Below, piece by piece: positions 28,496-52,804 of a DNA stretch of 64,000 bases. The notes below the pieces were generated by a model, which worked only from the letters and a program-made list of their open reading frames with translations, did no database searches and was not told the origin of the DNA. Position numbers and translations under genes: made by a program. This stretch comes from a virus, in the IMG/VR virus record IMGVR_UViG_3300046096_000411, positions 1 to 64,000 of that record; one strand, 5' to 3'. Every line of letters begins with the position of its first letter. Positions within the stretch are counted from its first letter, which is position 1.

Positions 28496-28536
28496 GCAAA
28501 CTATACAACAAATTTACTGCGTTGTTACATCAACCA

Positions 28537-28573: not shown

Positions 28574-28725
28574 CTCACCCACCATTCGACTACGGGTGAA
28601 CCCGCTGGCGGGAGCGTTCTCAGCGCATCTGCCTGGGACTGTTACCAGCCGAGGAACCCGGATGAGCGGGTCGAAAGTTCTCCCGGCGGCTTAGCCCCCG
28701 CCGGACCTGCCAGACTTCAGGTGTT

Positions 28726-28947
28726 CTAGGGCGTGCTATTAATTCCAAGTAGCATCAAAATAAGTGCCTCGTCGTCCTGCTGCCTGCGCTTGCGCGCCAG
28801 ATATGTGCTGTTGTTTCCGGTGCTTGTCGTTCCCGTTGGCGCCCAGTCGTAAACGGTCGCAGGCGGCAGAGGGTCTGGCGCGGCGAGCATCCGGCCAAAT
28901 GAATTGCCAAATGCCTTGCCGAATGACAGGCCCCATGCGGAAGCCAT
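28726..28947 (-). CDS. Small hypothetical virion-associated protein
   Basis: Abuts upstream stop; WG/FG repeats at N-terminus, RRQQDDEALILML C-terminus. Confidence 0.6.
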   Translation of the reverse strand: MASAWGLSFGKAFGNSFGRMLAAPDPLPPATVYDWAPTGTTSTGNNSTYLARKRRQQDDEALILMLLGINSTP

Positions 28948-29577
28948 TTAAGCACCCGGTCCCCAAGGGTCCGTGTCGCTACCCGTTCCACCCAGCTCCT
29001 GTCCTCTGACCTGCACCATGTTGACGGGCAGCGGTGCGGCCTGCAGCGCGGCAACCACAGCGGCAACGATCTGCACAAGGCCGGGATCGAGGCTCTCCGT
29101 TAGGCTGCGCTGTGCGGCACTCCACACCGCAGACGCGGTCTGTTCCGGCGTGAGCGCCGTGCCCGTGACCACGTTCTGATAGCTCACGGAGTTGTTCACC
29201 AGCGCCGACACAGTGGCTGGGTAGATTGGCTGACCATCAGCCGCCCAGTAAGCCGTCTCGAAGTCGTCCGAATAGAGCACGCCGGTCACGCGCACCTTGT
29301 TCATGTCGATGATCAGCTTCCAGCCATTCTGCAGGAAGTAGATCAAACCCGAGCGACCGCCAGGAATGGAGTCGTAGCCAGTGCGGCGCATGGCCAGCGT
29401 GTGGTAGTCGTTCCCGGGCAGCGCGGCCCAATCCACCCAGCGCGACCACACATCGGTCTGGAGATTGAGGGCGGTCACGTCGCTATTAACGGTGATTGTG
29501 CGCGCCAGGCCGTTGAAGGCGACCTTTTTGTTTTGCGCCCACTCAGCCCCCCATGCGCCCCAGACTAGAGCGGCCAT
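28948..29577 (-). CDS. Hypothetical structural protein
   Basis: 209 aa in tightly packed operon; TASAVWSAAQRSLT motif seen in phage fibre-associated proteins. Confidence 0.65.
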   Translation of the reverse strand: MAALVWGAWGAEWAQNKKVAFNGLARTITVNSDVTALNLQTDVWSRWVDWAALPGNDYHTLAMRRTGYDSIPGGRSGLIYFLQNGWKLIIDMNKVRVTGVLYSDDFETAYWAADGQPIYPATVSALVNNSVSYQNVVTGTALTPEQTASAVWSAAQRSLTESLDPGLVQIVAAVVAALQAAPLPVNMVQVRGQELGGTGSDTDPWGPGA

Positions 29578-29580
29578 CGA

Positions 29581-30942: not shown

Positions 30943-30955
30943 CGGTTACTCCAAT

Positions 30956-32548: not shown

Positions 32549-32560
32549 GATGGGCTCCTA

Positions 32561-37000: not shown

Positions 37001-37149
37001 AGTGGGCCACCTGTTGCCGATTGGTTCGGGCCGTAGCGGCTGTCGCAATCAATCGTGAGTTTTCCGCCGTTGACGCTGTAGCTGTCTGCGCCAGACTTAC
37101 CCGCGAGTTCGGTGATGCGCTGCGCGCTCGTGACCGTGAAGTTAGCCAT
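34096..37149 (-). CDS. Large beta-helix fibre/spike-like protein with C-terminal assembly-chaperone-like domain
   Basis: About 1017 aa Gly/Thr/Ser-rich; C-terminus FLSRFTVAELVAI...GLIAPERAAEV resembles fibre-assembly proteins. Confidence 0.65.
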   Translation of the reverse strand: MANFTVTSAQRITELAGKSGADSYSVNGGKLTIDCDSRYGPNQSATGGPLGHITGSGTLGGELFIDSSAVRLIPFSAGSGRVPDAGSVITQGAATAELLCVMANKTGGDVHTGNMPNSGWLKVRGTGFAAGALTGINATATDPDETGWMVVVGAEGKSIVMGRRGLLNVNNGAAIWFAAGVTSGARGQTIQLPHFSADGATHYPGVEIETAPGSGVYAFWANVGTKFKSTLISDDSRSRYVHISATGLVTLGRGTDNQNAGDLPATGCLVRVPNLILQSCGGNKAVNSDPNDSLSSRYKTSFAFGGNLRHGGSTGAWYWTLAQPHSVAIKDLHTCDQFAMSRCATRPEIDGLFVGLSTKNSFAAVSPISITQCVAGGIVGRIGGVRAECTGPSHYSLYFSNLGGAWTFDSLRGAFASDCTSVAGSAFFNACEHVTVEAAETVGKRVLVNNGSKVRIKRHTYADNVRGTTLTTSASHAVEVLGATDCEVLDFRNWPGVANVHPYSGLVYASTTRNLIAGHVGSGATPYNAGTVNVMGQFFSDGGNNIDAWLRRSWLTALRSGLVLPNSSSTGHKQENCYTADASKTQAPTQCRAISRGNRHNGGSVPTNYTGTYGTPFWDAFTGDTTARLVVAFTEPMASDGTYTLQAGNPQFTGSGGIVMAQGDAAVWEMPAPMLGWTGLTGFAVSGSNTALHTVEYDIDRGAGFTGAYQVLTTARLAAEQVTPTGFRLRLRITCTASNYSNQLTSVRIDGSTTLVAQNAALYPLDVPHASLMLTGLQFGSHIAVALDGDTVFSGSSVTATASISYPDRAARDCVVTITKAGYHTETLTVPYARSILIPVHQHEAVQAETVAETGDSADIAAAVQARLLDDFAAIDARLSNQMHDAYDPNKQWYVITRNGEKLIGVTTDDPTDIEWPEGYSIAQMSGQVPDLNFNVWDYGLDQFKSSLPTRVAFLSRFTVAELVAIRASTDQVVKDIMARIDVLRYINLQEQLTVDSVAYFAQVGLIAPERAAEVTA

Positions 37150-37331
37150 CATTCGACCCATTTATTAAGGGGGCACCGAGTTTGCGGCAGCCAAGTTTTA
37201 GTAAGAATCGGGCAGGAGCAATTCCACAGCTTGCACCCCTCTACCCCCAAACCCAGCGGAATGCGCTGGTCGCAAGACTTGCACGTAGCAAGTCGTTGCA
37301 AGCGGACAGTGGAGATACGAACCGGGTTCAT
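37149..37331 (-). CDS. Small Cys-rich protein (RLxxCxxC...CxC...CPxxKW)
   Basis: 60 aa, six Cys; stop overlaps next start. Confidence 0.7.
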   Translation of the reverse strand: MNPVRISTVRLQRLATCKSCDQRIPLGLGVEGCKLWNCSCPILTKTWLPQTRCPLNKWVE

Positions 37332-37348
37332 GCCCCTGCCCTTATGGC

Positions 37349-38227
37349 TTAGTTGCCTTGGCCGTTACCGCCAGCCAGACCGAACAAACGGCCGCGCAAA
37401 GCAGTGCGGAAGGACTGACCGTGCACCACGCAGTTCACGTTCTTGATCATGTCCACAGTAATGAACGTGTCGTGAGCGGCGGCGTTGGATACTTCCAGAG
37501 CAGCCACAGCAGCAGCGGCACCAGCAGCAACACCAGCGGCGTTGTTTGCAGTTGCTTGGGCAGCGGCAGCGGCAGCTGCAGCGGCTGCAGCTGCAGTAGC
37601 AGCAGCGTCGGCAGCAGCTTGGGCGGCGGCGATGGAGGCAGCGCTGACGCTCAGGCCGGCAACCGCGTCTTGCAGAGCGGTGATGCGAACGGACTGCTGT
37701 GCGTCGGAGGCTTCGAGGTTGGTGACCTTGTTGGTCAGGTCAGCAATCGAAGCGGTCAGGGCAACGCAATCGCAGTCACCACCGGTGCCGCCAGTGCCTT
37801 CCGTCTGAATGGTAACGATCTGCTGGGTCAACGTGGCGACCGTGGCCTCCAAGGTCTCCAAGTCGCTACGCAGGGCATCGTCGCCAGCAACGCGGGCAGC
37901 GGTTTCGCTGGTCAGGGCGGTCTGGATGGCTTCAACAACAGCAGCCAGGTCGGCAACAGCGGTGCTACCTTCCAGAACGTCCAAGCGGTTGTCCAATGCG
38001 GACAACTGGGCCAGGATGGACTGGGCAGTAAGCTGGTCGCCTTCAGTGTTGCTTGCCAACAAAGCATTCAGCGTGGCGATTTGCGCGCTGATAGCGTTGA
38101 GGTCAGCGCCCTGCAGGGCGAGGACTTGGTCAAATTTATCTTGGACCGCTTGGCCGATCTCATCACCGAAGGTGGTGGAGATGCAGCTAATCAGCGTATT
38201 CAGTTCGTCGTTGTACGTGGTGGACAT
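37349..38227 (-). CDS. Coiled-coil fibre-like protein with poly-Ala tract
   Basis: Heptad pattern throughout; start taken at MSTTYN. Confidence 0.7.
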   Translation of the reverse strand: MSTTYNDELNTLISCISTTFGDEIGQAVQDKFDQVLALQGADLNAISAQIATLNALLASNTEGDQLTAQSILAQLSALDNRLDVLEGSTAVADLAAVVEAIQTALTSETAARVAGDDALRSDLETLEATVATLTQQIVTIQTEGTGGTGGDCDCVALTASIADLTNKVTNLEASDAQQSVRITALQDAVAGLSVSAASIAAAQAAADAAATAAAAAAAAAAAAQATANNAAGVAAGAAAAVAALEVSNAAAHDTFITVDMIKNVNCVVHGQSFRTALRGRLFGLAGGNGQGN

Positions 38228-38263
38228 AAGTGTTTCCAATTAGGGATGGGGACAAACCGCCTC

Positions 38264-38464
38264 TCACGCGGGCGGCGTTGCGTTCTCCAGCGTGCTGGGG
38301 GAATCGGTGGAGCAACCTTGGCCGTTCAGGACGGCCTGCAGGTCGCTGATGCGCTGCATGTGAGACGCGATTTCGGCTTGCACCAGGCAATGCAAGAGCT
38401 CGCCAATTTGCTCGCCAATGGCCACCGCGAAACAGGACAGTTTCTCATCTAAGATGTTGCTCAT
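38264..38464 (-). CDS. Small protein resembling N-terminus of downstream coiled-coil protein
   Basis: LSCFAVAIGEQIGE vs ISCISTTFGDEIGQ. Confidence 0.6.
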   Translation of the reverse strand: MSNILDEKLSCFAVAIGEQIGELLHCLVQAEIASHMQRISDLQAVLNGQGCSTDSPSTLENATPPA

Positions 38465-38499
38465 GTAGTTCCCTTGTGGATGCCAAAAGCAGCGGTAAA

Positions 38500-39504
38500 T
38501 TACGCCTGCTTCTGAACTGCTCGCGTTATGTTTCCGTCCTTGTCGCGCTCGATCTCGGTGACCATGCGGCGAGGCTCCGGCAATTCTAGCGTCACGTTTG
38601 GAGCTGGAACCACGACCGGCTCAATATTCACGATAGGAGCCGCGACGTTGACCACGGGCGCTGGCACGACCACGGGGTCGATGTTAACGACCGGCGCCGC
38701 CACATGCACGTCTGGAGCCGCCACATTGACCACTGGCGCAGGCACCACAATCGGCTCGATATTGACGACCGGCGCGGGCTGCTGGGGCACGTTGACGTGC
38801 ACCACGGGTGGCTGAGCCTCTGGCACCGTGATGTTGACGATAGGCGCGACCTGCTCCGGCACCTTGACGTCGATGCGCGGGTCAAAGTGGATGACGGGCT
38901 GGGCTTGCGCGAGCGCATGAATGGCCCCCACAAGCTGCGACTGCAGCTCGGCCAGACCATCCAGTCGGGCCACGATGGCGGAGGCGTCCTGGGCCCCGCT
39001 GGCGGCTACGGACGCAGCGGTCTGGTGCACAGCCACCACCATGCCGTCCAGCGACTTCGCCAGGTCGGATAACCCGTGAAGGTCAACGCGGGTCGCGGCA
39101 GGCATCAGACTGACGACTGGCGAATGAAAAGACTTGGCGAGAGACGACGGCCGGGCCTTGGGCTTGTCCAGCGCCAGGCGCTCGCCACGAGCCTCGGGCG
39201 GGATGCCGACATACCGGCGGTTGCCCGTCGAGTCTGCCACGATCATGCCGTCGGAGCCTTCCTCCAGAACCCGGTACCGCTGCACGGCCCGCTTTTTGTG
39301 TCCGGCGATGTGCTCCCACTTGACCTTATGCTGGGCGCCGCCGTGCTCCACGGTGCAGCCGTGCTGGCCGGCGCAAAGCACCTTGCCGGACACAGGGGTG
39401 CCGGCCTTGTGAAAATAAACCTCGTCGCCCGGGAACGCGTGGCACACGGCTGGCGTGGCCGCCTGCTTTTGGGTTGGCGACTTGGGGGCGTTGAAGCTGG
39501 CCAT
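38500..39504 (-). CDS. Portal-adjacent protein with PVVN(V/I) repeats
   Basis: TGATG coupling to portal; two LAKS sites; repeated PVVNV/PVVNI units. Confidence 0.75.
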   Translation of the reverse strand: MASFNAPKSPTQKQAATPAVCHAFPGDEVYFHKAGTPVSGKVLCAGQHGCTVEHGGAQHKVKWEHIAGHKKRAVQRYRVLEEGSDGMIVADSTGNRRYVGIPPEARGERLALDKPKARPSSLAKSFHSPVVSLMPAATRVDLHGLSDLAKSLDGMVVAVHQTAASVAASGAQDASAIVARLDGLAELQSQLVGAIHALAQAQPVIHFDPRIDVKVPEQVAPIVNITVPEAQPPVVHVNVPQQPAPVVNIEPIVVPAPVVNVAAPDVHVAAPVVNIDPVVVPAPVVNVAAPIVNIEPVVVPAPNVTLELPEPRRMVTEIERDKDGNITRAVQKQA

Positions 39505-41207
39505 CAGGGCTCCACGGTAAAAACAGGCAGGCCAAACGACTTCTGCATGTCTTGACCATCATCCTGCCCGGGGTCGGGCTGGCCGCCGTCATCAAACATG
39601 CCGTCCTCGGGTGCTTCGCCCTGCTGGTCGCCGCCTTCCTCTGGTGGCTGTCCGCCACCAGGTCCGGGGGCGCCGTAATCTTCCTGCTGGGCTTGGTTTT
39701 CAGCCTGCCACGCAGACATCAGCGACGGATTCAGCGGGGCGTTGCCCCATTCGCCCTTGACCTCTTCCATGCCCTGAGCCTTGCGGGCCTCATTGAGCGT
39801 GAGGATGGTCTTGTCCTTTTCCCAGCGCATCTGGGGGTCTTCTTCATCGAGGCCCGTCCAGCGAAAGACGTACTTGTCGCCGAATTCGGACACAATGTAG
39901 TCGGAAAACAAATCCTCGAAGTGGGACAGCAACGGGCGCAAGCCCTTGTCCTTGGAGTTGATCAGCTTTTCCTCGGTGTCCGAGCCGGACAGCGAAGACG
40001 TGCCAGAGGTGAATGACTCGAAGTTGATCTCGTCCGGCGCGATGCCGTAGATCGCGCAAATGATGGACGTGAGGAACGTCATCCACTTGGCGAACATGAT
40101 CTCGTTCACGTCCACGCCGAAGTTTTCAAACGCGGCCTTGGACTCCTGGTTCTTCGACACCAGCACAGGGAGCGTCCAGGCATTGTTGATGCCCTTGACC
40201 ATGGAATTCCAGTACCGCTTGAACGCGGCCATGTCCTGGTCGCTGTACTCGCCGGTCAGGTGCAGCAAGCCCTTGGGGATAGCGTTGCTGTCGAAATACT
40301 TGGTGTTGTAGCTGAAAGCGTTAAGGAAGCCCGTGACCACACGCACCAGCAGCTCGGTCTCGGACAGGCCGTAGCCGCCCACCAGAACATCGGTGCGGGG
40401 ATTGCGCGGGACGTAGATCAGGTCGTCGTGGGTGTAGGCGGCCCGGATGTTCCCATCCACCACCTGCAGCGCGAAAATCTCATCCTCGTCGCGGTAGCCC
40501 ACCTCGTTGGCAAGCCGGATGGTAGCGCCGTCCACGGCATACATGCCGTCAATACCCAGCGACTTGTTGCGCTTGTACTCGGTTTCGATTGGCGCGCTGT
40601 CCAGCGTAAGGCTGTCGCGCACCAGTTTGGCCATGAGGTTCGAGAAGTTGTCGCGCTTCAGGCGTGCGCGCTGGCGCGGGTTGCGCTCCCAGCCGCTGTG
40701 CGTGAAGAAGTCCTGCATAAGCGCGATGGATTGCTGCTCGTCGCTGCCGAGCTTGGCATTGGGGTCTTTCAGGCGAACCTGAAACCCGGGGCCTTTGCCA
40801 CCGTCTGGTACGCGGCAAAACCGCTTCACCTGGCGAATGCGGGTGAAGATTACCGCAGAAAGAATTGGGGTCTGGTCCACCATGCCGCGCAGCATGTCAA
40901 AACTCATGTTCGACCAGCGCTCACGCCACTCGCCCATGGCGTTGCCATAGGTGTCGTTCACCCACACGGACTGCATGCCGGCCTTGCCGTCGGCTATGGC
41001 CCGGCTCGGGAATGGTATGACGTTGGGTTTTGCCAGCGACTTTGCGAACTCGCTCTCTTCGTACTGCCGCTGCATGTACTCCACGACCGGCATCATGTCG
41101 GTGACGCTTTTGGGCAGCGCCGCCTGCTGCGCCTCTTGCATGGCGTGCGAGCGCTCATCTTGCGGAGCGGCGCCATTGAAGGCGGTGGATAGTGCAGTTT
41201 CAGCCAT
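39504..41207 (-). CDS. Portal protein
   Basis: YAVDGATIR, GYGLSETE, YFDSNAIPKGLL, ICAIYGIAPDEINF, LTLNEARK portal motifs. Confidence 0.92.
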   Translation of the reverse strand: MAETALSTAFNGAAPQDERSHAMQEAQQAALPKSVTDMMPVVEYMQRQYEESEFAKSLAKPNVIPFPSRAIADGKAGMQSVWVNDTYGNAMGEWRERWSNMSFDMLRGMVDQTPILSAVIFTRIRQVKRFCRVPDGGKGPGFQVRLKDPNAKLGSDEQQSIALMQDFFTHSGWERNPRQRARLKRDNFSNLMAKLVRDSLTLDSAPIETEYKRNKSLGIDGMYAVDGATIRLANEVGYRDEDEIFALQVVDGNIRAAYTHDDLIYVPRNPRTDVLVGGYGLSETELLVRVVTGFLNAFSYNTKYFDSNAIPKGLLHLTGEYSDQDMAAFKRYWNSMVKGINNAWTLPVLVSKNQESKAAFENFGVDVNEIMFAKWMTFLTSIICAIYGIAPDEINFESFTSGTSSLSGSDTEEKLINSKDKGLRPLLSHFEDLFSDYIVSEFGDKYVFRWTGLDEEDPQMRWEKDKTILTLNEARKAQGMEEVKGEWGNAPLNPSLMSAWQAENQAQQEDYGAPGPGGGQPPEEGGDQQGEAPEDGMFDDGGQPDPGQDDGQDMQKSFGLPVFTVEP

Positions 41208-42151: not shown

Positions 42152-42609
42152 GAAAGCGCACGCGCCGAAAGATTTATGCGTTGGTTAACCCGATTGCCTA
42201 CGCAATCGAGGGAGCAAGCGTAACCCCCACGGACCAGCTCGATAGCCTTCGTGTTCTAGAGCTGTCCGCCATTGATGCGGTCGCTCGTGGAATGGGGACT
42301 GTAAAAGACCTTTCGGCGCTGCGCGACATGGCTAACCTCTGTGAAATGATGGCGCTCGGAGGTGTTGGACCCGAGGCGCTGGAGCCGTCAAGGCTGGCGC
42401 AAAGAGAGATGATCGACATAGTGGAGCGCCGGAAAAGAACCGGTCGCATTGGCGCCACAGGCTCAGGCCTTGAATCATTCCGCGAGCTTTTCAGGTGGCA
42501 CGACCTCCAGCGCACCAGCATCTCGCGCAGCGAGTATGAGAGATACATTGTGAAGACGACAAACGCCGTCAAAGGTGGCAGGGCCACCGTGGTCAACTTG
42601 GACAGTTAA
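42148..42609 (+). CDS. Hypothetical phage protein
   Basis: 153 aa helical, ATGA-coupled to dut. Confidence 0.7.
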   Translation: MRKRTRRKIYALVNPIAYAIEGASVTPTDQLDSLRVLELSAIDAVARGMGTVKDLSALRDMANLCEMMALGGVGPEALEPSRLAQREMIDIVERRKRTGRIGATGSGLESFRELFRWHDLQRTSISRSEYERYIVKTTNAVKGGRATVVNLDS

Positions 42610-45227
42610 ACCGCAATAAACAACGGGCACCCGGGGTCTGTTTCGCGCACGCGAACACCATCCCGCTCGTTGCATCGTCCGTTATCGAATGAAATACAGC
42701 GTCCGCACACGTCGCCTGACACCTGCAAAACCTCCTGAATGGCGTTGCTCAACGTCGGCGTGTACCGCTCAAGCACAACCTGCACCGACGTCTCCTTGGG
42801 CTTTTCTGGCTCCGGCAGGATAAACATATTGGTGCCATACGCGCGGGCCCATGCCACGTCCACAAGCATGTTGGCGTAGCTGGTGTGCGGGTCGATGCCG
42901 ACCTTCACCACCCGGCGTTTAAACTTTTTCTCTTCCTCGTCCTTTTCCGCGATCAGCGCTGTGCGGGTGAAGTGGAAGAACGCGTACTCCTTGCAGACGG
43001 CGGACATCCGCCATTTGCCCTTCTCCAGAACCTCCTGCACCAAGCCCTCGGGGTCAGGGAACAGGCAGAGCTTTTTCTGGAAGCGACCCATAGACACCTG
43101 CATGCACTTGTACTGGTCGAGCGTGACGGTGAAGCGGTCCCGCAATTCCTCGTCCGTCCGGCGTTCGCTGGTGTCCAGCTTGGGGGCGTCGCCCCAGCGC
43201 AGCATGTCGCCCTCCATGTTGCCGTAGCCAGCCAGGAACACGCGGCCGTCATGGCGGCGGGCAAACGACTTGGCATTGTCGTAGTTGGGAAGCGTTTCCA
43301 CCACACAGCACTGCACGCCGTAGGTCGACATCAGCTCGTCGCACCGGTCCCATGGCGAGGCCTCGGGGTCGTCTTTGGTGGGCGCTCGGAAGATGTACTC
43401 CATGTGCAGCACGGCCTGGCGGCCGTCGGGCAGCCGCTCCTTGATGATGGCCACAATGAAGGAGCCCATCTGGTCGAGCCCCATGAAGGTGCCCCTGCCA
43501 TTGCGCCGCCACTGGAGCCCGTACTCCACACCCACGCGGGCGCACTCGTTGAGCATTTCCAGATTCACCGGCACCTGTGACGGGTCGGTGTAGGGCTTGC
43601 CCAGCTTCCGGTTAAAAAAGTTCTTCATGTCGTCGGCGTTGTGGTACGCCTCGATGATGTCCCTGGGGCTGATTGTTGGCGACAGAAACTGCGGGAAGTG
43701 CACCGAGCGAATCTCGGAATCCGGCGTCTTTGCGATCCACTGGCCGATCTGCGGGTCGTCAATCCACCCCTGGCACGACACGCACCGGTAGCGGTACTCG
43801 CCACGGGCGGCGCCGCCCTCGCGCTGCAGCAGGCGCGGAGCCTCGGGGTCGTAGCCGATGCATTGGGGGAAATTTTCGTCCAGCACCTGTAGCATCGCGC
43901 AGTGCGGGCACTCGGTGTGGAACTGGTGCTGGGTGCCCTTTTTGTACCAGAAGTGAATGTCGGAGTCCGGCCAGTTGGCCGTGGAGCCCATGAGCGTGTA
44001 CCGCAGCGACGAGGCGGACATACGCTCGCGGGTTTTCTCCATGTCCGCGATTGCCATCTCCTGCACCTCGTCAAACGAGACGACGTCCATGGGGAAGGAT
44101 TCGGTCGCGGTCTTGCCGGTGGTCCACAGGAAGTGAAACCGGGACGAGCCCAAATTGCGAATAAGGATGTTGCCCTCGCCGCCACGGCCGCCGGATGCCT
44201 GCTTCTCGGTCATCAGCGCGTACACGTCGGGTACCGTCCGCACGATGGGCATGAAGCGCTCGCTCGACTTGCCAGAGGCCAGCATCTGCGACGGCATAAA
44301 CATGCCGATCTTGGCTGGCGAGAACCGCATGGCCAGGTAGATCATGGCCAACATTTCCATGACGGTGAAGCCCACCTGGGTGCACTTCATGATCACGTCG
44401 GTACGGTTGAAGGCGTCCTCAATCGTGGCGGGGATGAGTTCGTAAATGAACCGCATCGCCGGGCGGTCGGACAGCGTGAATGGCCGGCCGTCAACCTTGA
44501 GCCCTTCGGCTTCCAGCCGCTCGCACCACTGCAGGAACGTCTCGCCGGGCTTGAGTGAGCGCTGCTCTTGGGTGAACTCGACCGCCACATCAAAGAACTC
44601 AGCACCGAACCGCTGGCGCTGCTCCAGCTCGGTGCCCAGCGACGCGGCCAGTCGCGCCTCTTCAGGTAGGTGCGGATTGCAGAAGCTGTCGAACTGCCAC
44701 ACCGACCAGTCGGGGTCAGTCTGTCCGAGCCGGCACAGCCGGTAGAAGTCGTTGCGCTTGCCGAAAGCCCCGGACAGGAACCATGCGTCGCCGTTGTAGA
44801 CCTTCAACATGGGGCGAAGCACGTCCTCCCACAGATTGAGTAGGCCATCCACGAGCCGGGCGTCGTCCACCACGATCAGGCCGTACTGTTCGAACAGCTC
44901 CTGGGGCTTCTCGAAGCTGTAGAAGTCCACGAACCCGCCGGACACCAGCTCGATGCGTCGGGCGTTGACGCGGCGTTTGATGAGCGGGTCGATGGCGCGC
45001 ATCACAAGGCGGCGAGCCTCAATCATGGCGTCGTCGGTCGGCGAGAACCAAGCAACCGGCTTCTTGCTGTTGAGCGCGCCCTTGGGGCTGGCGAGTAGCA
45101 CCTCAATGCCAAGCGTTGTCTTGCCGAACTGCTCACCGGCGGCAACGGCGTTGTACCGGCTGGCGCGCGCCAAGGCCTTCTGCTGGGCCGCGTGGGGCGT
45201 TGGGAGCGATATTTTTACGGTAGCCAT
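42606..45227 (-). CDS. terL: Terminase large subunit (lambda gpA-like) with extra N-terminal terminase-ATPase-like domain
   Basis: MKCTQVGFT, VSFDEV, GSTAN, CPHC/CVSC, nuclease MGLDQ; N-terminal PHAAQ..GEQFGKT..IVVDDA domain; C-terminal Cys cluster. Confidence 0.88.
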   Translation of the reverse strand: MATVKISLPTPHAAQQKALARASRYNAVAAGEQFGKTTLGIEVLLASPKGALNSKKPVAWFSPTDDAMIEARRLVMRAIDPLIKRRVNARRIELVSGGFVDFYSFEKPQELFEQYGLIVVDDARLVDGLLNLWEDVLRPMLKVYNGDAWFLSGAFGKRNDFYRLCRLGQTDPDWSVWQFDSFCNPHLPEEARLAASLGTELEQRQRFGAEFFDVAVEFTQEQRSLKPGETFLQWCERLEAEGLKVDGRPFTLSDRPAMRFIYELIPATIEDAFNRTDVIMKCTQVGFTVMEMLAMIYLAMRFSPAKIGMFMPSQMLASGKSSERFMPIVRTVPDVYALMTEKQASGGRGGEGNILIRNLGSSRFHFLWTTGKTATESFPMDVVSFDEVQEMAIADMEKTRERMSASSLRYTLMGSTANWPDSDIHFWYKKGTQHQFHTECPHCAMLQVLDENFPQCIGYDPEAPRLLQREGGAARGEYRYRCVSCQGWIDDPQIGQWIAKTPDSEIRSVHFPQFLSPTISPRDIIEAYHNADDMKNFFNRKLGKPYTDPSQVPVNLEMLNECARVGVEYGLQWRRNGRGTFMGLDQMGSFIVAIIKERLPDGRQAVLHMEYIFRAPTKDDPEASPWDRCDELMSTYGVQCCVVETLPNYDNAKSFARRHDGRVFLAGYGNMEGDMLRWGDAPKLDTSERRTDEELRDRFTVTLDQYKCMQVSMGRFQKKLCLFPDPEGLVQEVLEKGKWRMSAVCKEYAFFHFTRTALIAEKDEEEKKFKRRVVKVGIDPHTSYANMLVDVAWARAYGTNMFILPEPEKPKETSVQVVLERYTPTLSNAIQEVLQVSGDVCGRCISFDNGRCNERDGVRVRETDPGCPLFIAV

Positions 45228-47178: not shown

Positions 47179-47973
47179 TTAGCTCTTCGGAGCGACCTTT
47201 GGTGCTTGGTGTAGCTTTTTCGGTGCAGGCCCAGCACCAACAGCCTCAGCAATTCCATGATCCGTTGGCATGTTGAGAACTTCGTACAGGTGTCCACGAG
47301 GGACGAGGCTCACGGCCTCTGATTCCCAGCCGCAGTCAGTTGGGTCGCCACCAACCCGCACCGCCCGGTAGAACCGGGCCTTGCTGGTGGTGCGCTCCAC
47401 GTCCATCAGGAAGCCGGTGATCTTGATCTTCAGCCCACTTTCTTCGTGGGCCTCTTTCGCTGCATTACCTTGCAGGCTCAAGCCCTTCTCTGCGCCCCCT
47501 TTGGGGAAGCTGGCTTGGTACCCACCGAAGGCATTGGTCGGATGGATCACCCAGCACCGGCCGTCCTTTTCCTCAATCACAACGCCAGAGGCGACCGCCT
47601 TGCCGGGTGTGACATGGAACGCTGGTTCTTCAATGTCGTGATCAACGCAGTCCGAATAATCCCAACCCTCGGCCGTGGTCGGCGCATCGCGCCAGCGGCG
47701 AAACGGCACGCCGTTCAACTCGCGGGGCACGTCGCCACCAGGCACAAACGTGGCCACGGCGTCGGGGTTGTCCCAAGTGGACTCGGCCGACGGATGGTGC
47801 GGGGCCTTGACCAGCACGGCCTCGCCCTTTTCGCCCAGCTTCGGGTGATGGTGCGGTGGCAGCGGCTCGTGGCCGTTGCGGTCATACGGGCGGACGTAGT
47901 GCTCGCCGCGCATGTGGCCCTTGACGTGGGCCTTGGCGAGATCGTCGCCGAACTCCAGTACGGCATCAGTCAT
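47179..47973 (-). CDS. Nudix hydrolase with putative capsid-targeting leader
   Basis: FPKGGAEKGLSLQGNAAKEAHEESGL Nudix box (first Glu replaced); N-terminal DLAK/AHVKGHMRG. Confidence 0.88.
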   Translation of the reverse strand: MTDAVLEFGDDLAKAHVKGHMRGEHYVRPYDRNGHEPLPPHHHPKLGEKGEAVLVKAPHHPSAESTWDNPDAVATFVPGGDVPRELNGVPFRRWRDAPTTAEGWDYSDCVDHDIEEPAFHVTPGKAVASGVVIEEKDGRCWVIHPTNAFGGYQASFPKGGAEKGLSLQGNAAKEAHEESGLKIKITGFLMDVERTTSKARFYRAVRVGGDPTDCGWESEAVSLVPRGHLYEVLNMPTDHGIAEAVGAGPAPKKLHQAPKVAPKS

Positions 47974-48475
47974 TGCCCACCACCCCCGTCAACGCCATAG
48001 AAATCGACCGGACGGCCGCCACCAGGGTCTGCTCTGTTTCCTCTCCTGGCGCGCCGGCGGACGCCTCGCGCAACAGGTCGTAGACCGAATGCACGAACAC
48101 GGCGAAGGCTTGGGCAACCAGCTGCACGTCGTCGTCGTCCGGCACCAGCTCCCGCTCCATGCGGTTGCGCAGGTGATCGGCCAGTGGTTTACCAGTCCAG
48201 TTGCGCACGGGCGCATAGGCGGGGTCCGCACCAGTGAACACGCTGGCGAGCTTCAGGCACTGCGCCCGGTCGGCGTCAGCGGCATCGCCGGGTGTGAGCA
48301 CGCCGTGCCCAACCTCGTCAAACCGCGTGATTACTTCGGATGCGAAGCCGCGCACGATACGCTCGACCTCCCGAATGTCGCCCAAGTACACGCGGCCATC
48401 GGTGGCGGCCTTCAGGGACTCAAGAATGCCAGAGGGGTCGGTGTGGAGGTTAAGTTTTTCGGTCATTTTGGTCAC
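47966..48475 (-). CDS. Hypothetical helical protein, candidate inhibitor/immunity partner of upstream ART-kinase
   Basis: GTGA-coupled to toxin-like gene; acidic, no targeting tag; function inferred from position only. Confidence 0.6.
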   Translation of the reverse strand: MTKMTEKLNLHTDPSGILESLKAATDGRVYLGDIREVERIVRGFASEVITRFDEVGHGVLTPGDAADADRAQCLKLASVFTGADPAYAPVRNWTGKPLADHLRNRMERELVPDDDDVQLVAQAFAVFVHSVYDLLREASAGAPGEETEQTLVAAVRSISMALTGVVGND

Positions 48476-51400
48476 TCAGTTGGCAGAATAACGGCTTCGA
48501 TCACGTGGCTTGACGATTTGCCAAACCCGTCCGCATCGCCGTCCTTGCCTTTTACAGACAGGATCATAAGGCGAGTTCCAGGCGGGAGGATCATCTCATC
48601 CTCGCCGGAGTTTGAAGATAAAGCACCACCACCAGCAATCGAGTGGTACCCGACCCATAAACCCTTCACGCCGGGGCCCACGTGTAGCTTCAGGTGCACG
48701 TTTCCACCCCAAGAAGACGGACGGATTGACGTGGACATGATCGCTGGCTCCTGAAGAATTTTCCCCGAGGACTTCAGCAGCTGATCAAGGTCACTGCCGT
48801 GCAGCGAAATCTTGCGCGACAGGACCGTGCCCGGTGCAATATCATGCCCCAGTGTTTTCAAAGCCTCGCCGGCAGCCTTTGCCGCGCCAGTCGGGTTGCC
48901 GCTCCACAGCGAGCCATTCATGGCGTGATACGAGCTGCCAGTGTAGCTCTTCACCGCCTGCTTTTGCGTGGCGGGCATTTTTGCAATCGCGGCTTGGGCC
49001 TGCTTGGCATAGGTCTGGGCGGAAAGCGCGCCGCCACCCTCTGCGTGCTTGATTTTTTCCGGCAGACCCAAATCCGCCAGATTTACCGACCCGGGCTCGC
49101 CGAGCACAATAAACTTGCCGAGCTTTTGCGCGACAGCGCTGGAAGCAGGACCAGTAAACGCGGGGTACGCAGCATTCAGCGAGTGCAGCGGGTGGCCGCC
49201 GTCAAACCTGAACTTCTTGGGCGGGTTTAGCTGGTAGTTGATCTCGTTGATGGCCTGCTGGGCGTAGCCCTTCACGTGCTGGCTGGGGTGCTCCAGCACA
49301 GGCTTGTGGCCAACAACCTGCCCGGAATCCTTGTCATAAACCGGCGCGGTCAGGCCTTTGATGGCGTCCAAGTCGCCCGTCTTGGCGGCGGCGAAAACCG
49401 CCTGCACGGCTTCCTCGTTGGCTTTGTTGAGAAACTCCTTCGAGGAAGGGCCAGAGCTGCCGTTGCCGCCCCAGTTGAGAAAGGACGGCGGCGCGCTGAT
49501 GTCTTCGGGTTTGAAGACCGGGGCCTTCTTCTTCTTGACGGCGGCAGGAAACCGCTTCGCCAGGTCGGCCTTGCGGGCAATAAGCGTCTCGGCCAACTTC
49601 GTCTTGGCTGCGGCATCGCCGGGTCCGTACTGGTTGACCATGGCGCGAATGGCCACGTCGCTGATGGCTAGCACCTTTGCCGCGCTGGCGGTCAGGTCGG
49701 CCTTGGTCATGCCCTTGAAGACAGACGCGGCCTGCGGGTTTTTGCCCGCGTCCAGCAGGGTGTCGAGCTCGTCCACCTTGGAGCCAAAAGGCTTCTTCTC
49801 GCCTTGGGCGCGGTATTCGAGCGAACCACCAGCATCCACGCGGTGGGCCTTGCCGTCGGGGCCAACCTGCAGGTTGTCGTAGCCGAGGCCGACCACGTCC
49901 CAGTTGCCCAGCCATGCATCAACCGCGAAACCGGCCTGCGCGCCATCAACCTTGGCAAGCGCGCCAGGAGTGGCGGCCTTTTTGATGTCCACCCACTTGG
50001 AGGCAATGCCGACCTTGCCACCCTTAGTGACAAGCACGGCGTCTTGGCTGGACAAGCCCGCGAGGGCGTACAGCTTGGCCGCGAGCACTTCGGACTTGGC
50101 GGTGTCGGCGTCGGCGGGGAATTTGCAGTACCACTCCTGGCCGGCGGGGTCTTTGAACTTGCCGCCGGGGTTGGAGCCGCCCTGCCCGCCGGTTTGAGCC
50201 CATCCGTCCATGGGGAGCATGCCGCCGGCGGCGGTTGGGGGCACCTGAGCTGCGGGAGCGGCGGCGGTTACGGGGGAGGGCCCGGTGCCATCGCTCCACG
50301 CAGAGGTGTCCACTCCCATGGCCTGCGCCACGGCTTTGATGTGGCTGGCAGTTTTGGGGAAGCTCATCGCGTGAGCCTTGGTGTAGGCGTTAGCCATGCC
50401 CACGCCGTCGCCTTTCTTGGCTGCGGCTGTGGCCAGCTTGCCTGCCCCGTTGTTTGAAAACTTAGACTGGCCTGGGCTGATCGTCTGGATGGCGGTACTG
50501 ATGTCGATCAGGGTTGCCTTTTTGACCTTGGCCGGGGCGGCAGGCTTGTAAGTCGGGTCGAGCTTTTTCAGCGCGGCATCTGGCGGGATGGGGTATCCCA
50601 TCGCCTTCATCTGGGGGAGAATTTCGGCGAGCGTTTCGCCCGGAATGGTGTCGGGCTCGGCGAACGAGTCATCCGTCACGCCAAATTCAAACCCGTCATC
50701 GCCGCCTCCGGCGAGGTAATAACCTTTCCCGTCTTTCTCAAATTCCAGCGATGGGCTGCCATCGAGGCCGGGATTGGATGCCGAGTGGGTCCACCCACCC
50801 ATGCCGTCATCCTGCTTGACCCAGTGCCCATTTTTGAACACCAGCATGCCGTCGGCGCCAGGCTTTGTGTCGCCTTCCTTGGGGCCGGGCTCCACGGCGG
50901 CTGGGGCTTCGTACTCGTGCTGAGCGGTACCGGAATAGTTGTAGCCCTTGGCCTTCTTCTCCCCCATGAGCTTGACGGCGGCATTTTTTGCGGCCTGCTC
51001 GGATGGAAATACCTTCTCGGTGACCTGCCCCTTGGTGCCGATTTTCCCGTAGTGCGTCTTCATCACGGAGCCGAGCGTCGACACCGACCAGAACTTGCTG
51101 TGGCCGGGCTCCTTGTTTTCGTAGAGCGGGGCGTCGATTTTTAGTTTTTGCGCGGGGGTTGCAGGCGCAGCTGGGGCGGGCGCAGGGGAAGCCCGCTGAG
51201 GCTTCGTCCCAGCCAGCGCATGCCCCTGCAGCTCTTGCGCTTTCTGCTGAGCCGCCTCCAAAGCGTCATCGTAGTCTTCGTCCGTTTGCTTTTCTGCCGG
51301 CATACTCTCGTTCACGGCATCCATGAAGTATTCCATGGCGGCGTCCGGGTCGTGGTCCGTCAGCGCCTCGTAGGCATCGGCCTGCGCCTTGGTGGGGACT

Positions 51401-52782
51401 TTCCCAGCGGAGATTGCGGCCTTCCACTCGCTGACGACGGGGTATGGGTCGGCGGCTGGCGCGGGGGGTGTAGCAGTCTGCATCCCGATTGCCGCAGCAT
51501 GGTGCGACAGGTCGTGCGACGCCAGTGCATCGTGCATTTCAGGCTCGCCGCCAGGATTTGCTGCCAGCCAGTCCTGAGCCGCGAGCTTGGCGGCGATAAC
51601 CTTGTCGTAGGGTGACGACATTTTGTGCGCAGCCAGCGTGTGCGCGAGGTGGTCGTAGGCAGGCTTACCTTGGAGCGCAACCGGCGCAGGCTCCACAGGC
51701 ACAGCCGCGGTCGCGCCATCCACACCCAGGCCGGCCAGCGCGGTCTGCGCGGTGAGAGCCTGCTTCTTGGCGTAGGTCTGCTTGGCGTCGGCCTTCGAGT
51801 TGATAAAGGCCTGCAGCCCGGCGGTGTCGCCAGCGAAGGCCATGGCCTCGATCTTCGCCATGGCGGCGTTGTGGCTCTTGGCGTTGGTGTTCTCGGGGGG
51901 CAGCTTCAGCTTGAACCATGGGATGGATTGCAGGTTCTGCAGCTGCTGGGCTGAGAGCGCACCAGAGGCGGGCGGGGCCGATGCCGGAATCTCGGCTTCG
52001 GGAGCGGCGGGCGCGGCGGCCTGCGGAGCTGCCTGCTTTTTGGCCGTGCCCTTGGCAACAGCCTCGGCCAGCGTAGCGGCGGGGATAGTCGCGGAGTTTG
52101 TCTGGTTCGGCACCTTCGCGCCGACCTTGTGCATGTAGACATGCTGGCCGTCGGGGCTGGTGTTGTAGACCACCCACTTGCCGGCGTTCATCTTCTCGTA
52201 CTGGCTGGAGAACTCGAAGACGGTGCCGGTTGCTACAGTTTCGGCAGATGCCGGAGTAATCGCGGCGGGCTCGGGCTCCTTCGGCGCCAGGTGCTCAGGC
52301 AACCCAGTCGGATGCGGGTCGGCGGGCTCAGCCACCTGGGCGGCGGCGTGGGTACCGGGTTTCTGGCCCGGGGTGACGGTGTGCGTAGAGCCGTGCAGGC
52401 CCAACAAGTGGTTGGCGATTTTCGCCAGCTTCGCGCCGTAGGTGTTCGTGCCAAAACCCGCACCAACGATGGCCGTCACATCGCCCGCATCGGACCACGC
52501 GCGCAGCTTTTCCAGCGCCTTATTGAAAACGGGCGCGTTCACATTGGAGTCCGGCAGCTTCAGCGCGGACCATTGGTCGTCGGTAAAGTGCGCGGCGGCC
52601 TCGTGGTGCCCAGCGGATTTGGGGTGCGCAGCGACAGGTGCGCCCTTGGGGGCTGGTGCGTCTTGGGTGATCTTTCGCCACCGGGGAGGGTTGCCGTAAA
52701 GAGCGTACCCACCCTTATGGGCAATCGAGGTGCCGGTGCCGGGTCCGGATTTCAGCAGCAGGATGAGACGCGGTGTGTTCAT
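48472..52782 (-). CDS. Polyvalent protein: WGR domain + HipA/PI3-PI4-kinase-like domain + R-S-E ADP-ribosyltransferase
   Basis: WGR: HSKFWSV..HYGKIGTKGQ..EKKAKGY; kinase: GSNPGG..WYCK..SEVLAAKLY..LGNWD..DN..VDAG; ART: YTGSSYHAMNGSL..LSR..MSTS..EDEMILP. Confidence 0.88.
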   Translation of the reverse strand: MNTPRLILLLKSGPGTGTSIAHKGGYALYGNPPRWRKITQDAPAPKGAPVAAHPKSAGHHEAAAHFTDDQWSALKLPDSNVNAPVFNKALEKLRAWSDAGDVTAIVGAGFGTNTYGAKLAKIANHLLGLHGSTHTVTPGQKPGTHAAAQVAEPADPHPTGLPEHLAPKEPEPAAITPASAETVATGTVFEFSSQYEKMNAGKWVVYNTSPDGQHVYMHKVGAKVPNQTNSATIPAATLAEAVAKGTAKKQAAPQAAAPAAPEAEIPASAPPASGALSAQQLQNLQSIPWFKLKLPPENTNAKSHNAAMAKIEAMAFAGDTAGLQAFINSKADAKQTYAKKQALTAQTALAGLGVDGATAAVPVEPAPVALQGKPAYDHLAHTLAAHKMSSPYDKVIAAKLAAQDWLAANPGGEPEMHDALASHDLSHHAAAIGMQTATPPAPAADPYPVVSEWKAAISAGKVPTKAQADAYEALTDHDPDAAMEYFMDAVNESMPAEKQTDEDYDDALEAAQQKAQELQGHALAGTKPQRASPAPAPAAPATPAQKLKIDAPLYENKEPGHSKFWSVSTLGSVMKTHYGKIGTKGQVTEKVFPSEQAAKNAAVKLMGEKKAKGYNYSGTAQHEYEAPAAVEPGPKEGDTKPGADGMLVFKNGHWVKQDDGMGGWTHSASNPGLDGSPSLEFEKDGKGYYLAGGGDDGFEFGVTDDSFAEPDTIPGETLAEILPQMKAMGYPIPPDAALKKLDPTYKPAAPAKVKKATLIDISTAIQTISPGQSKFSNNGAGKLATAAAKKGDGVGMANAYTKAHAMSFPKTASHIKAVAQAMGVDTSAWSDGTGPSPVTAAAPAAQVPPTAAGGMLPMDGWAQTGGQGGSNPGGKFKDPAGQEWYCKFPADADTAKSEVLAAKLYALAGLSSQDAVLVTKGGKVGIASKWVDIKKAATPGALAKVDGAQAGFAVDAWLGNWDVVGLGYDNLQVGPDGKAHRVDAGGSLEYRAQGEKKPFGSKVDELDTLLDAGKNPQAASVFKGMTKADLTASAAKVLAISDVAIRAMVNQYGPGDAAAKTKLAETLIARKADLAKRFPAAVKKKKAPVFKPEDISAPPSFLNWGGNGSSGPSSKEFLNKANEEAVQAVFAAAKTGDLDAIKGLTAPVYDKDSGQVVGHKPVLEHPSQHVKGYAQQAINEINYQLNPPKKFRFDGGHPLHSLNAAYPAFTGPASSAVAQKLGKFIVLGEPGSVNLADLGLPEKIKHAEGGGALSAQTYAKQAQAAIAKMPATQKQAVKSYTGSSYHAMNGSLWSGNPTGAAKAAGEALKTLGHDIAPGTVLSRKISLHGSDLDQLLKSSGKILQEPAIMSTSIRPSSWGGNVHLKLHVGPGVKGLWVGYHSIAGGGALSSNSGEDEMILPPGTRLMILSVKGKDGDADGFGKSSSHVIEAVILPTE

Positions 52783-52804
52783 CCGCGCATTTTGAAGTCA
52801 CGAC
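52783..52804 (-). promoter_or_regulatory. Late-promoter motif, leaderless (GTCGTGA cttc AAAAT gcgcgg ATG)
   Basis: TCACGAC at 52798-52804. Confidence 0.85.

Follow-up and report, generated by a model that had tools for sequence, protein, structure and literature searches.

Organization of the cassette

The window analyzed here, a stretch of 64,000 nucleotides of viral DNA, is colinear with the genome of Pseudomonas phage Dolphis and derives from a Dolphis-like temperate myophage with a genome of ∼93 kb. Immediately upstream of the terminase and portal genes the window contains three genes on the minus strand (Table 1), which are flanked by a DNA methylase gene and the terminase gene and have the same orientation as the late genes. 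An earlier reading of this DNA without database searches (the sequence-only reading) had described the three open reading frames; they are present where it had placed them, and its domain boundaries are correct to a few codons. It had counted the middle gene from a GTG codon. This open reading frame exists, but its most probable start codon is the ATG at position 48466, the start shared by nearly all of the 47 homologue clusters. The stop codon of the large gene is then followed by 5 nt and the ATG of the middle gene (TGA, 5 nt, ATG), and the middle gene and the Nudix gene overlap by 8 nt (ATGACTGA).

The co-conservation of the three genes, on which the sequence-only reading had staked its interpretation, was checked and holds: they are kept together in 34 related loci, and in all 34 the order is large protein, ∼165-aa gene, and Nudix gene. 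In one Oxalobacter prophage the homologue of the middle protein is encoded in frame with the leader-bearing Nudix protein.

The promoter-like motif in front of the large gene occurs 14 times in the window compared to 0.77 expected copies. The other copies are found directly upstream of the portal, terminase, protease, and baseplate genes and of further morphogenesis genes. This agrees with the previous assignment of the cassette to a late operon, and the cassette would be co-transcribed with the morphogenesis genes.

Table 1. Features of the cassette and their positions in the window.
Feature	Position	Strand	Basis or remark
Promoter-like motif GTCGTGA-N4-A-N3-T	52789–52804	minus	Ends 6 nt ahead of the ATG of the large gene
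Large gene, polyvalent effector protein (1436 aa)	48472–52782	minus	ORF, translation, homologues; N-terminal half variable, kinase–ART C-terminal half conserved
Leader of the large protein (residues 1–37)	52672–52782	minus	Hydrophobic run PRLILLLK/S, then His/Gly/aromatic box IAHKGGYALYGNPPRWRK; candidate capsid-targeting/cleavage signal
Helical module, other copies	∼52378–52590 and ∼51727–51960	minus	Repeat seen by eye
WGR domain, optional module (residues 558–617)	50932–51111	minus	Pfam PF05406, PDB 2ra8
CtkA/HipA-like protein-kinase-fold domain (residues 855–1085)	49528–50220	minus	Fold and motifs
Helical module, copy 3 (∼60–70 aa)	49303–49500	minus	Repeat seen by eye; part of the conserved C-terminal unit
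C-terminal R-S-ExE ADP-ribosyltransferase domain, polymorphic tip (residues 1192–1436)	48475–49209	minus	Pfam PF03496, PHROG Alt-like families
Middle gene counted from GTG (169 aa)	47966–48475	minus	ORF, translation
Middle gene from ATG, acidic all-helical partner protein (166 aa, pI 4.7)	47966–48466	minus	ATG start, homologues; without leader
Nudix gene (264 aa)	47179–47973	minus	ORF, translation
Leader of the Nudix protein	47878–47973	minus	DDLAK/A and box HVKGHMRGEHYVRPY; conserved in nearly all homologues
Nudix fold	47305–47598	minus	Pfam PF00293

Architecture of the large protein

The conserved core of the large protein is formed by a kinase and an ADP-ribosyltransferase (ART) domain, a combination found in at least 495 protein clusters. 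In the best 119 of the 495 matching clusters residues 855–1436 are covered to 99–100% with 57–98% identity, and these 119 homologues have lengths of 1084–2253 aa. Ahead of the conserved C-terminal 580 aa the N-terminal halves are shuffled and carry WGR, GNAT, or ART-PolyVal domains. Ala/Pro linkers between the domains had been noted before, and such Ala/Pro-rich stretches are found at residues 239–280 and 520–552.

WGR domains of PARPs bind nucleic acids and regulate the attached enzyme. The WGR domain of the large protein is recognized by profile (PF05406, E 2.6e-11, 43.9 bits at a cut-off of 22; PDB 2ra8, E 7.8e-6). It is present in only 26 of the 120 homologues listed, and the three-domain layout of WGR, kinase, and ART described in the sequence-only reading is not a fixed one. 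For the same reason the nucleic-acid sensing ascribed to the protein is speculation. The helical module, for which a Pfam search of the large protein gave no match, is found by tblastn in most related loci.

Fusion partners of the kinase module in further viral contigs are Phage_Mu_F (loci L039 and L044), an ART, and, in more distant relatives, a Zeta toxin, LPD38, or a Nudix domain. The large protein has two properties of a polyvalent protein: it combines at least two unrelated effector domains in an architecture that varies among its relatives, and it is linked to head-packaging components by the neighboring terminase and portal genes, by the promoter motif of these genes, and by the MuF fusions.

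Kinase and ADP-ribosyltransferase domains

The large protein had been proposed to carry a kinase and an arginine-type ART, and both are borne out by fold and motifs. The kinase domain has a two-lobed kinase fold with a Gly-rich loop (GSNPGG), the pair of K887 and the helix-C glutamate E898, the D-x4-N motif (D955 and N960), and the DxG motif (D983-A-G985). In 42 sequences with 33–89% identity to the kinase domain of the window, residues G869, K887, E898, D955, N960, G985, and G986 are invariant and D983 is kept at 90% or more. The kinase resembles CtkA from Helicobacter pylori (PDB 3akj, 3akk, and 3akl) and the HipA/HipT toxin kinases with ∼19% identity. Unlike them it forms part of a giant phage protein, and residues 855–1085 give no Pfam match even at E ≤ 1, including HipA_C, HipA_2, and PI3_PI4_kinase. 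Weak hints are an Atlas feature-space neighbor carrying HipA_2 and a profile match to LepB with E 0.056. From its fold and motifs the domain is predicted to phosphorylate host proteins on serine or threonine.

The ART domain contains a match to ADPrib_exo_Tox (PF03496, residues 1338–1412, E 2.3e-7, 30.8 bits at a cut-off of 23.4), and a profile of its family matches the structures of Lmo0066 (5e-11), SpvB (1e-7), and VIP2 (9e-7). The catalytic motifs follow each other in the expected order with R1323, S1350-T-S1352, and E1394-D-E1396. S1352, E1394, and E1396 are invariant in 21 ART homologues; in one divergent ART type from other loci the catalytic arginine is replaced by lysine. At least three divergent ART types occur at this C-terminal position. 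By its fold and motifs, the R-S-ExE domain would ADP-ribosylate arginines of host proteins.

The middle gene encodes a putative partner of the ART tip

The middle protein is found in 35 of the 41 ART-bearing loci and in none of the 52 loci without ART. The distances between ART domains correlate with those between middle proteins (r = 0.89), also when the kinase is taken into account (partial Mantel r = 0.81, p ≤ 0.0005). There are 46 pairs of loci in which the kinases are similar but the ARTs are not, and in all 46 the Nudix proteins are similar and the middle proteins dissimilar. A variable tip on a conserved carrier, with a small gene downstream that changes in step with the tip whereas kinase and Nudix remain alike, is the signature of a toxin and its partner, although the co-divergence could come in part from the physical adjacency of both sequences within one recombination tract. 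The ART tip is exchanged between phages along with the downstream 166-aa protein, for which specific binding to the ART domain is therefore the most likely role. The middle gene is thus tied specifically to the ART tip. The sequence-only reading had proposed that the untagged middle protein protects the producing cell. It may stay behind for this purpose, but its homologue in Yersinia phage fHe-Yen8-01 is annotated as particle associated, a flag that is unselective (see below).

The partner could act as an inhibitor or immunity factor and prevent ART activity in the producer. The immunity proteins of colicins travel with their toxin, and the partner could likewise be a chaperone that travels with the ART. 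An inhibitor is not obligatory, as the ART Alt from bacteriophage T4 needs no immunity protein. A further possibility, which we regard as rather doubtful, is that the 166-aa protein is no inhibitor at all but a packaging adaptor or folding chaperone specific for each ART type, which is either co-packaged or recycled. In favor of this are the co-variation with the ART, the particle flag of the fHe-Yen8-01 homologue, and the shared reading frame in the Oxalobacter prophage. On the contrary, the protein has no leader of the kind carried by the putative cargo proteins, and the particle flag is weak evidence (see below). In addition, the acidic partner stands opposite a basic ART tip (pI 9.2), which is the charge pattern typical of immunity pairs.

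The Nudix hydrolase is linked to the kinase-bearing effector

The third protein contains a Nudix fold (PF00293, residues 126–223, E 6.6e-9, 36.3 bits at a cut-off of 21.1). Of the canonical box GX5EX7REUXEEXGU, the part [KR]E-x2-EE-x-G[LI] with the catalytic glutamates is conserved in 27 homologues; the first glutamate of the canonical box is replaced by leucine or methionine, and the copy of the window has lysine instead of arginine. The closest solved relatives are weak and generic: the best PDB match is an Ap4A hydrolase with E 0.05, and an NCBIfam match lies far below its cut-off.

The sequence-only reading had seen in the Nudix protein a dedicated trimmer of the marks set by the ART. In such a writer–eraser pathway the Nudix enzyme would act on the product of the ART, either by converting protein-linked ADP-ribose to phosphoribose or by removing free ADP-ribose or NAD that stem from the ART. 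Of the 41 loci with an ART, 37 also have the Nudix, and in L046, L094, and L099 a single polypeptide even comprises Nudix, kinase, and ART. Nudix enzymes are able to cleave ADP-ribose conjugates (PMC9503650), and an ART domain is also combined with a Nudix domain in HopAG1, an effector of a plant pathogen (PMC9963460). However, after correction for the kinase the divergence of the Nudix protein shows no relation to the ART type (partial r = −0.03). In addition, loci L045, L048, and L061 as well as a plasmid of Pseudomonas juntendi encode the Nudix domain fused to the kinase; in the Nudix–kinase fusions of L045, L048, L056, and L061 the family HMM and, where scanned, Pfam revealed no Alt-type ART. 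Because of these fusions a dedicated trimmer is disfavored, and we consider the writer–eraser pathway unlikely. Instead, the Nudix protein would be a separate cargo enzyme whose functional tie is to the kinase-bearing effector as a whole rather than specifically to the ART. Its substrate in the host is probably a nucleoside diphosphate linked to another moiety, for example, ADP-ribose, an NAD-derived signal, an alarmone, or an RNA cap.

A common leader and the predicted delivery with the virion

Both the large protein and the Nudix protein start with a leader followed by a conserved box. Homologues of the large protein retain the leader as their N-terminus even where the rest of the N-terminal half is different. 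In the 93-kb genome exactly four proteins carry both leader and box; among them is an SNF2 helicase protein of 1516 aa whose gene lies within the head module. The pattern hydrophobic-x-K-[SA] alone carries little information; the core box is absent from 50 mononucleotide shuffles. We suggest that the leader is a candidate capsid-targeting signal, comparable to that of the T4 internal proteins and Alt or to the N-terminal signal of P1 DarB, and that it may be removed by the prohead protease, for which there was no Pfam match. The cargo would then be ejected along with the DNA.

In phage fHe-Yen8-01 the homologues of all three cassette proteins are annotated in GenBank as "phage particle associated protein". 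This flag is weak evidence because ∼52 of the 136 genes carry it, including those of the primase, DNA methyltransferases, and the terminase; a literature search did not find the paper behind the annotation. Taken together, the conserved leader, the kinase–MuF fusions in relatives, and this annotation make delivery of the cassette proteins with the virion plausible; the late promoter motif is a further piece of indirect evidence.

Alternatively, the proteins are not injected: being made late they would act in the producing cell, either shutting down host or defense functions before lysis or modifying phage proteins, and the leader would serve another purpose. The late-type promoter motif and the unselective particle annotation are compatible with this explanation. 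Nevertheless, we think it improbable, as other phages have this kinase module joined to MuF, a head protein, the SNF2 protein encoded between head genes has the leader too, and a dedicated ART partner is more sensible if the activity must be restrained in the producer. Very improbable is a toxin–antitoxin or abortive-infection/exclusion module expressed from the prophage and serving the lysogen: a toxin with a small partner would fit, and the phage group does carry integrases and other toxin–antitoxin pairs (e.g., MazEF in Dolphis), but the promoter motif is the one preceding structural genes, the product of more than 1,400 aa has a shuffled polyvalent architecture, and the cassette lies between DNA methylase and terminase, co-oriented with the late genes.

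Thus, we favor with moderate confidence that the cassette encodes host-takeover enzymes which are packed into the capsid and injected, with a partner for the ART and a separate Nudix hydrolase. The sequence-only reading is supported in part: the kinase–ART protein, the late operon, and the co-conservation are retained, WGR is no constant part of the layout, and the dedicated trimmer is not favored.

Comparison with known systems

The ART Alt of T4 is a head-packaged and injected arginine ADP-ribosyltransferase. The large protein likewise has an R-S-ExE ART, which matches the PHROG Alt-like families; late expression, a head-targeting signal at the N-terminus that is expected to be cleaved, and an early effect on the proteins of the newly infected host are predicted to be shared as well. 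On the other hand, Alt is a single enzyme without kinase, dedicated partner gene, or polymorphic tips. Alt and other head-packaged ARTs and Nudix enzymes have been described (PMC5512222, PMC9503650).

The polyvalent proteins of phages and conjugative elements were defined by Iyer, Burroughs, Anand, de Souza, and Aravind (2017; PMC5512222), and the concept was extended to NAD/ADPr systems (PMC9503650). With these the cassette has in common a very large multi-enzyme polypeptide, domains shuffled among orthologues, the linkage to head and packaging genes (MuF and LPD38 as fusion partners of the kinase in relatives), and the predicted packing into the capsid and injection. It differs in its ART, which is of the Alt/VIP2/C3 type, in its CtkA/HipA-like kinase, whose C-lobe is helical, and in two additional genes, one for the co-varying partner and one for the leader-bearing Nudix protein.

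CDI, Rhs, and T6SS effectors as well as colicins likewise combine a conserved delivery part with an exchangeable toxin tip at the C-terminus and a small gene downstream that changes with the tip, the partner being acidic and the toxin basic. In contrast to these, delivery of the cassette is predicted to proceed by capsid ejection and not by a secretion system; no known relative of the partner family was found.

The Dar system of P1, likened here by its description, belongs to a temperate myophage of ∼93 kb with giant injected enzymes. A short signal at its N-terminus brings DarB into the capsid, from which it is injected (PMC9024508); the window likewise encodes a giant leader-bearing protein, the 1516-aa SNF2 helicase protein. 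The Dar proteins have no consensus signal, whereas in the phage of the window one putative signal is common to four proteins. Finally, the type III effector HopAG1 from Pseudomonas syringae, which resembles the cassette in its domain description, unites ART and Nudix in one injected effector (PMC9963460), but is delivered into plant cells by a secretion system.

Implications

As a more tentative extension, the cassette may be a polymorphic toxin system of phages that is ejected from the capsid: the kinase-bearing protein would be the carrier of interchangeable ART warheads with their cognate inhibitor or chaperone, kinase and Nudix would be the constant core, and a previously undescribed N-terminal signal would load four enzymes. 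The consensus of this possible shared signal would be a hydrophobic run with K/[AS], then H-V-x-G-Y-x-R-x-D-G-T-x-V-x-P-H.

If this is true, the kinase–ART protein, the Nudix hydrolase, the SNF2 helicase protein, and a 233-aa protein of unknown function would be loaded into the head, and the joint target of kinase and Nudix would be a host pathway, for example, nucleotide or NAD-derived immune signaling. Packing host-takeover cargo into the capsid is a known strategy; the form predicted here from the sequence appears to be widespread.

Genomic context of the cassette

The window covers most of one phage genome of 93,362 bp and is colinear with Pseudomonas phage Dolphis, which has a contractile tail and an integrase. 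The three cassette genes, coding for a large kinase–ADP-ribosyltransferase (ART) protein, a middle protein and a Nudix hydrolase, are tightly packed: the large gene is joined to the middle gene by TGA, 5 nt and ATG, and the middle gene overlaps the Nudix gene by 8 nt (ATGACTGA). The ATG that yields a middle protein of 166 aa is most likely the start, as nearly all of 47 homologue clusters begin in this way.

The endonuclease-VII-like gene which follows the Nudix gene looks like a homing-endonuclease insertion without a Dolphis counterpart and was dropped as a cassette member. Downstream of it lie two small genes and the genes of the terminase and the portal. From the portal to the gp6-like gene about 11.5 kb have no Dolphis counterpart; the products (1021, 511, 530, 453, 334, and 296 aa) gave no Pfam match among those scanned, and the region perhaps represents a fibre or decoration module that has been replaced. 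We also dropped the reading of the 1436-aa protein as a tail or other structural component, as the tape measure and tail genes are located elsewhere.

The cassette is preceded by a promoter-like motif, GKCGTGA-N4-A-N3-T, of which 14 copies (13 on the minus strand) are found between positions 6045 and 57827 of the window, against 0.77 expected by chance. It is located directly upstream of the large gene, the portal, terminase, protease, baseplate, and other morphogenesis genes. The copies end a few bases before the start codons of the morphogenesis genes, a position which suggests that the late transcripts are near-leaderless.

Features of the cassette and of related genes in the window
Feature	Position	Strand	Remarks
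Promoter-like motif	52789-52804	-	first in cassette order
Large gene, 1436 aa	48472-52782	-	
Helical module (~60-70 aa), copy 1	52378-52590	-	in large protein
Helical module, copy 2	51727-51960	-	in large protein
Helical module, copy 3	49303-49500	-	in large protein
Middle gene	47966-48475	-	likeliest start ATG at 48466 (166 aa)
Nudix gene, 264 aa	47179-47973	-	
Endonuclease-VII-like protein, 253 aa	46408-47169	-	PHROG 1035, E 4e-18; between Nudix and next gene
Protein of unknown family, 233 aa	45270-45971	-	directly upstream of terminase; own promoter motif
Terminase	42606-45227		
Portal	39504-41207		
Region from portal to gp6-like gene	27924-39503	-	
Protein with C-terminal SNF2/DEAD helicase, 1516 aa	21801-26351	-	Pfam, PHROG 62

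Domains of the large protein

The sequence-only reading had proposed an injected WGR–kinase–ART protein which senses nucleic acid and writes modifications, together with a candidate immunity gene and a Nudix hydrolase trimming the ART marks or destroying ADPR/NAD-derived immune signals. The observation is confirmed, but the interpretation is supported only in part. Pfam places a WGR domain at residues 558–617 (E 2.6e-11) and ADPrib_exo_Tox at residues 1338–1412 (E 2.3e-7), and the PHROGs match is to Alt-like ART families. What is conserved is the segment of residues 855–1436 comprising the kinase, a helical module and the ART, with 57–98% identity over 99–100% coverage in the best 119 of 495 matching clusters, whose proteins have 1084–2253 aa. 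The WGR domain is optional, being present in 26 of 120 listed homologues, and some relatives carry GNAT or ART-PolyVal instead. Thus, the three domains do not form a fixed layout but one shuffle of a polyvalent protein, and a role of the WGR domain as nucleic-acid sensor is unsupported. The helical module (L-P-x2-N-x-N-A ... A-x2-G-D ... T-Y-x-K-K) is shared by most homologues, and Pfam has no match for it.

For residues 855–1085, the kinase module, searches of Pfam, NCBIfam and PDB sequences gave nothing significant, the sole match being a weak one of a kinase family profile (LepB, E 0.056). The kinase fold was therefore established by structure prediction. When 42 viral copies with 33–89% identity to this domain were aligned, G869, K887, E898, D955, N960, D962, N970, G985, and G986 were invariant and D983 nearly so. 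The AlphaFold2 model from this alignment (pLDDT 95.5, pTM 0.92) has CtkA of H. pylori as its top Foldseek match (TM 0.69), ahead of many eukaryotic-like kinases. Hence the earlier assignment of a HipA/PI3-PI4K-like kinase with intact motifs was correct. As the domain is not covered by any curated sequence family, we file it by function rather than as a member of a named family: it is predicted to work like a CtkA/HipA-type Ser/Thr kinase. In an exhaustive search the module was recovered from 4,695 clusters (50% identity), almost without exception as part of proteins with lengths from 700 to over 7,000 aa (one has 7,004 aa). Some proteins contain several copies, with up to five matches each. 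At one locus (L062:1925-5767) two tandem kinase modules and then an ART are found in a single protein.

The C-terminal R-S-ExE ART is likewise genuine. The motif residues R1323, S1350-T-S1352, and E1394-D-E1396 are in place, and a profile of 21 homologous ART tips (residues 1192–1436 in the large protein) matches Listeria Lmo0066 (5e-11), SpvB (1e-7), and VIP2 (9e-7) in the PDB, as well as Vis and C3. ExE enzymes are arginine specific, and from this the domain is probably an arginine-specific ART. The tips can be sorted into three or more divergent types, in all of which ExE is unchanged. One of them (loci L021, L030, and L031) retains ExE but has a Lys where the R-S-E triad has its catalytic-site Arg; its activity or specificity may be altered.

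The ART tip and its probable partner

We compared 80 viral and 13 bacterial-genome loci, all of them holding the kinase module. ART, middle gene and Nudix gene occur together in 34 of these loci, with an identical gene order wherever the layout was examined and a middle open reading frame of about 140–170 aa. The middle proteins form one fast-evolving family, to whose profile the homologue from Yersinia phage fHe-Yen8-01 matches with E 4e-32. Pairwise distances of ART tip and middle protein are correlated with r = 0.89 and, with kinase distance controlled, still with a partial r = 0.81 (p <= 0.0005), with the caveat that the adjacency of ART and middle gene within a single recombination tract could account for part of this. 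After the same control the values are −0.03 for ART and Nudix and 0.005 for middle protein and Nudix. In all 46 of 46 discordant locus pairs, defined by a kinase distance below 0.35 and an ART distance above 0.65, the middle proteins are dissimilar (0.71–0.86) whereas the Nudix proteins are still similar (0.13–0.36). In addition, the middle protein was found in none of the 52 loci without this ART. The middle protein is acidic with a pI of 4.7 (family median 4.75), the ART tip basic with one of 9.2 (median 9.06). ART tip and middle protein thus show the signature of a putative toxin tip with a cognate partner.

Scans of Pfam, PHROG and NCBIfam with the 166-aa protein gave nothing, and its family profile found only unnamed proteins of about 160–168 aa in a set of 5.8 billion proteins. 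It is modeled as a confident six-helix bundle (pLDDT 88.6), for which the structure search gave no meaningful relative. Complex prediction with the ART domain scored 0.81, 0.00, and 0.00 in the individual runs, which speaks neither for nor against binding. In Oxalobacter paraformigenes (L090:9763-10941) a middle homologue (residues 2–115) and the Nudix share one open frame, which reflects either a natural gene fusion or misassembly; the LAKA-HNPGYVRKDGTVVKPF box of this Nudix is now internal.

The Nudix protein matches PF00293. Of the Nudix box, 27 homologues conserve the catalytic part, [KR]E-x2-EE-x-G[LI], but not the first canonical Glu. A role as trimmer of ART marks is not favoured, as the similarity pattern of the Nudix tracks the kinase and not the ART. 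Nudix, kinase and ART form single polypeptides of 1306–1437 aa at three loci (L046; L094 from Ca. Contendobacter odensis; L099 from a Thalassobaculaceae MAG), and in L099 a middle-protein gene still follows. The Nudix is also fused to kinase proteins without detectable Alt-type ART (L045, L048, L056, L061, and a P. juntendi plasmid). Thus, the Nudix appears to belong functionally with the effector as a whole.

A shared leader and proposed virion cargo

The large protein begins with M-N-T-PRLILLLK, followed by S and IAHKGGYALYGNPPRWRK. In its homologues a hydrophobic run up to K[AS] is retained, and AH-x-(A/G)GY-x-L-x-NGRWHK comes next; this holds also for those with an otherwise unrelated N-terminal half. 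The Nudix N-terminus reads DDLAK, then A-HVKGHMRGEHYVRPY, and nearly all its homologues have L-x-K[AS] followed by H-V-x-G-Y-x-(R/K)-x-D-G-T-Y-V-K-P-H. In the whole genome this leader plus His/Gly/aromatic box occurs in four proteins only, the other two being the 233-aa and the 1516-aa protein; 50 mononucleotide shuffles contained zero copies of the core box. We read the leader as a candidate head-targeting signal, possibly cleaved after the K, analogous to the capsid-targeting sequence of T4 and the signal of P1 DarB (PMC9024508). Since the prohead protease, like capsid and scaffold, has no Pfam match, the proposed specificity for K followed by A or S is not tied to any protease family.

The 1516-aa SNF2 protein starts with MRQIPRLLIK and A. 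Its gene, for which Dolphis has no counterpart, is located between those of the gp6-like head protein and the prohead protease and carries a separate copy of the promoter motif. The protein is probably another polyvalent protein packed into the capsid, the second one here, and similar in concept to DarB. The 233-aa protein, with MSKPILIVFPEMLK before and S-HVDSYTRSDGTIVQAH after the presumed cleavage position, resembles the N-terminus of Dolphis gp116 in its first 38 residues and is a candidate for a fourth cargo protein.

Fusions of the kinase module to the head protein MuF occur at two loci (L039 and L044), and a third (L056) has a fusion to LPD38. In fHe-Yen8-01 all three homologues are annotated as particle associated. 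This flag carries small weight, since primase, methyltransferases and terminase bear it too (about 52 genes out of 136 in all), and the literature yielded no paper describing the cassette proteins or the virion proteomics of Dolphis, fHe-Yen8-01, Touem01, or related phages. The flag is nonetheless a warning against assuming that the leaderless middle protein stays outside the particle. Taken together, promoter motif, leader, fusions and annotation point indirectly to the cassette enzymes being virion cargo.

Comparison with known systems and implications

The idea of phages packing and injecting ARTs, Nudix enzymes and polyvalent multi-enzyme proteins encoded near terminase and portal has been published (PMC5512222; PMC9503650), and HopAG1 of P. 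syringae likewise joins an ART and a Nudix (PMC9963460). In contrast to the polyvalent proteins of the 2017 study (PMC5512222), an Alt/VIP2-type ART, which that study reported as not seen, is here part of a polyvalent protein, and the CtkA/HipA-like kinase clade is distinct from the one described there. The present cassette further differs from published packed effectors in its polymorphic ART tip with a co-varying partner gene and in several putative cargo enzymes sharing one leader. The relatives in phages Dolphis, Jeremy, Touem01, ST4, and fHe-Yen8-01 are annotated merely as ADP-ribosyltransferase or hypothetical protein. The kinase–ART–Nudix cassette is widespread and uncharacterised.

If the leader is a capsid-targeting signal, foreign proteins could be loaded into these phages with its help, and cargo proteins would become predictable from sequence. 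The kinase family is large, lacks a curated model and resides almost always in giant phage proteins, so that thousands of genes could be annotated once its substrates are defined. If our model is right, a kinase, an arginine ART and a Nudix are injected together by a single widespread lineage of temperate myophages (about 90–100 kb) whose hosts are Pseudomonas, Aeromonas, Yersinia, Escherichia, and Enterobacter; prophages related to it are found in other bacterial genomes. The ART evolves in the manner of a polymorphic toxin that has a matching partner, and the toxin/immunity logic known from bacterial warfare would thereby extend to the takeover of hosts by phages.
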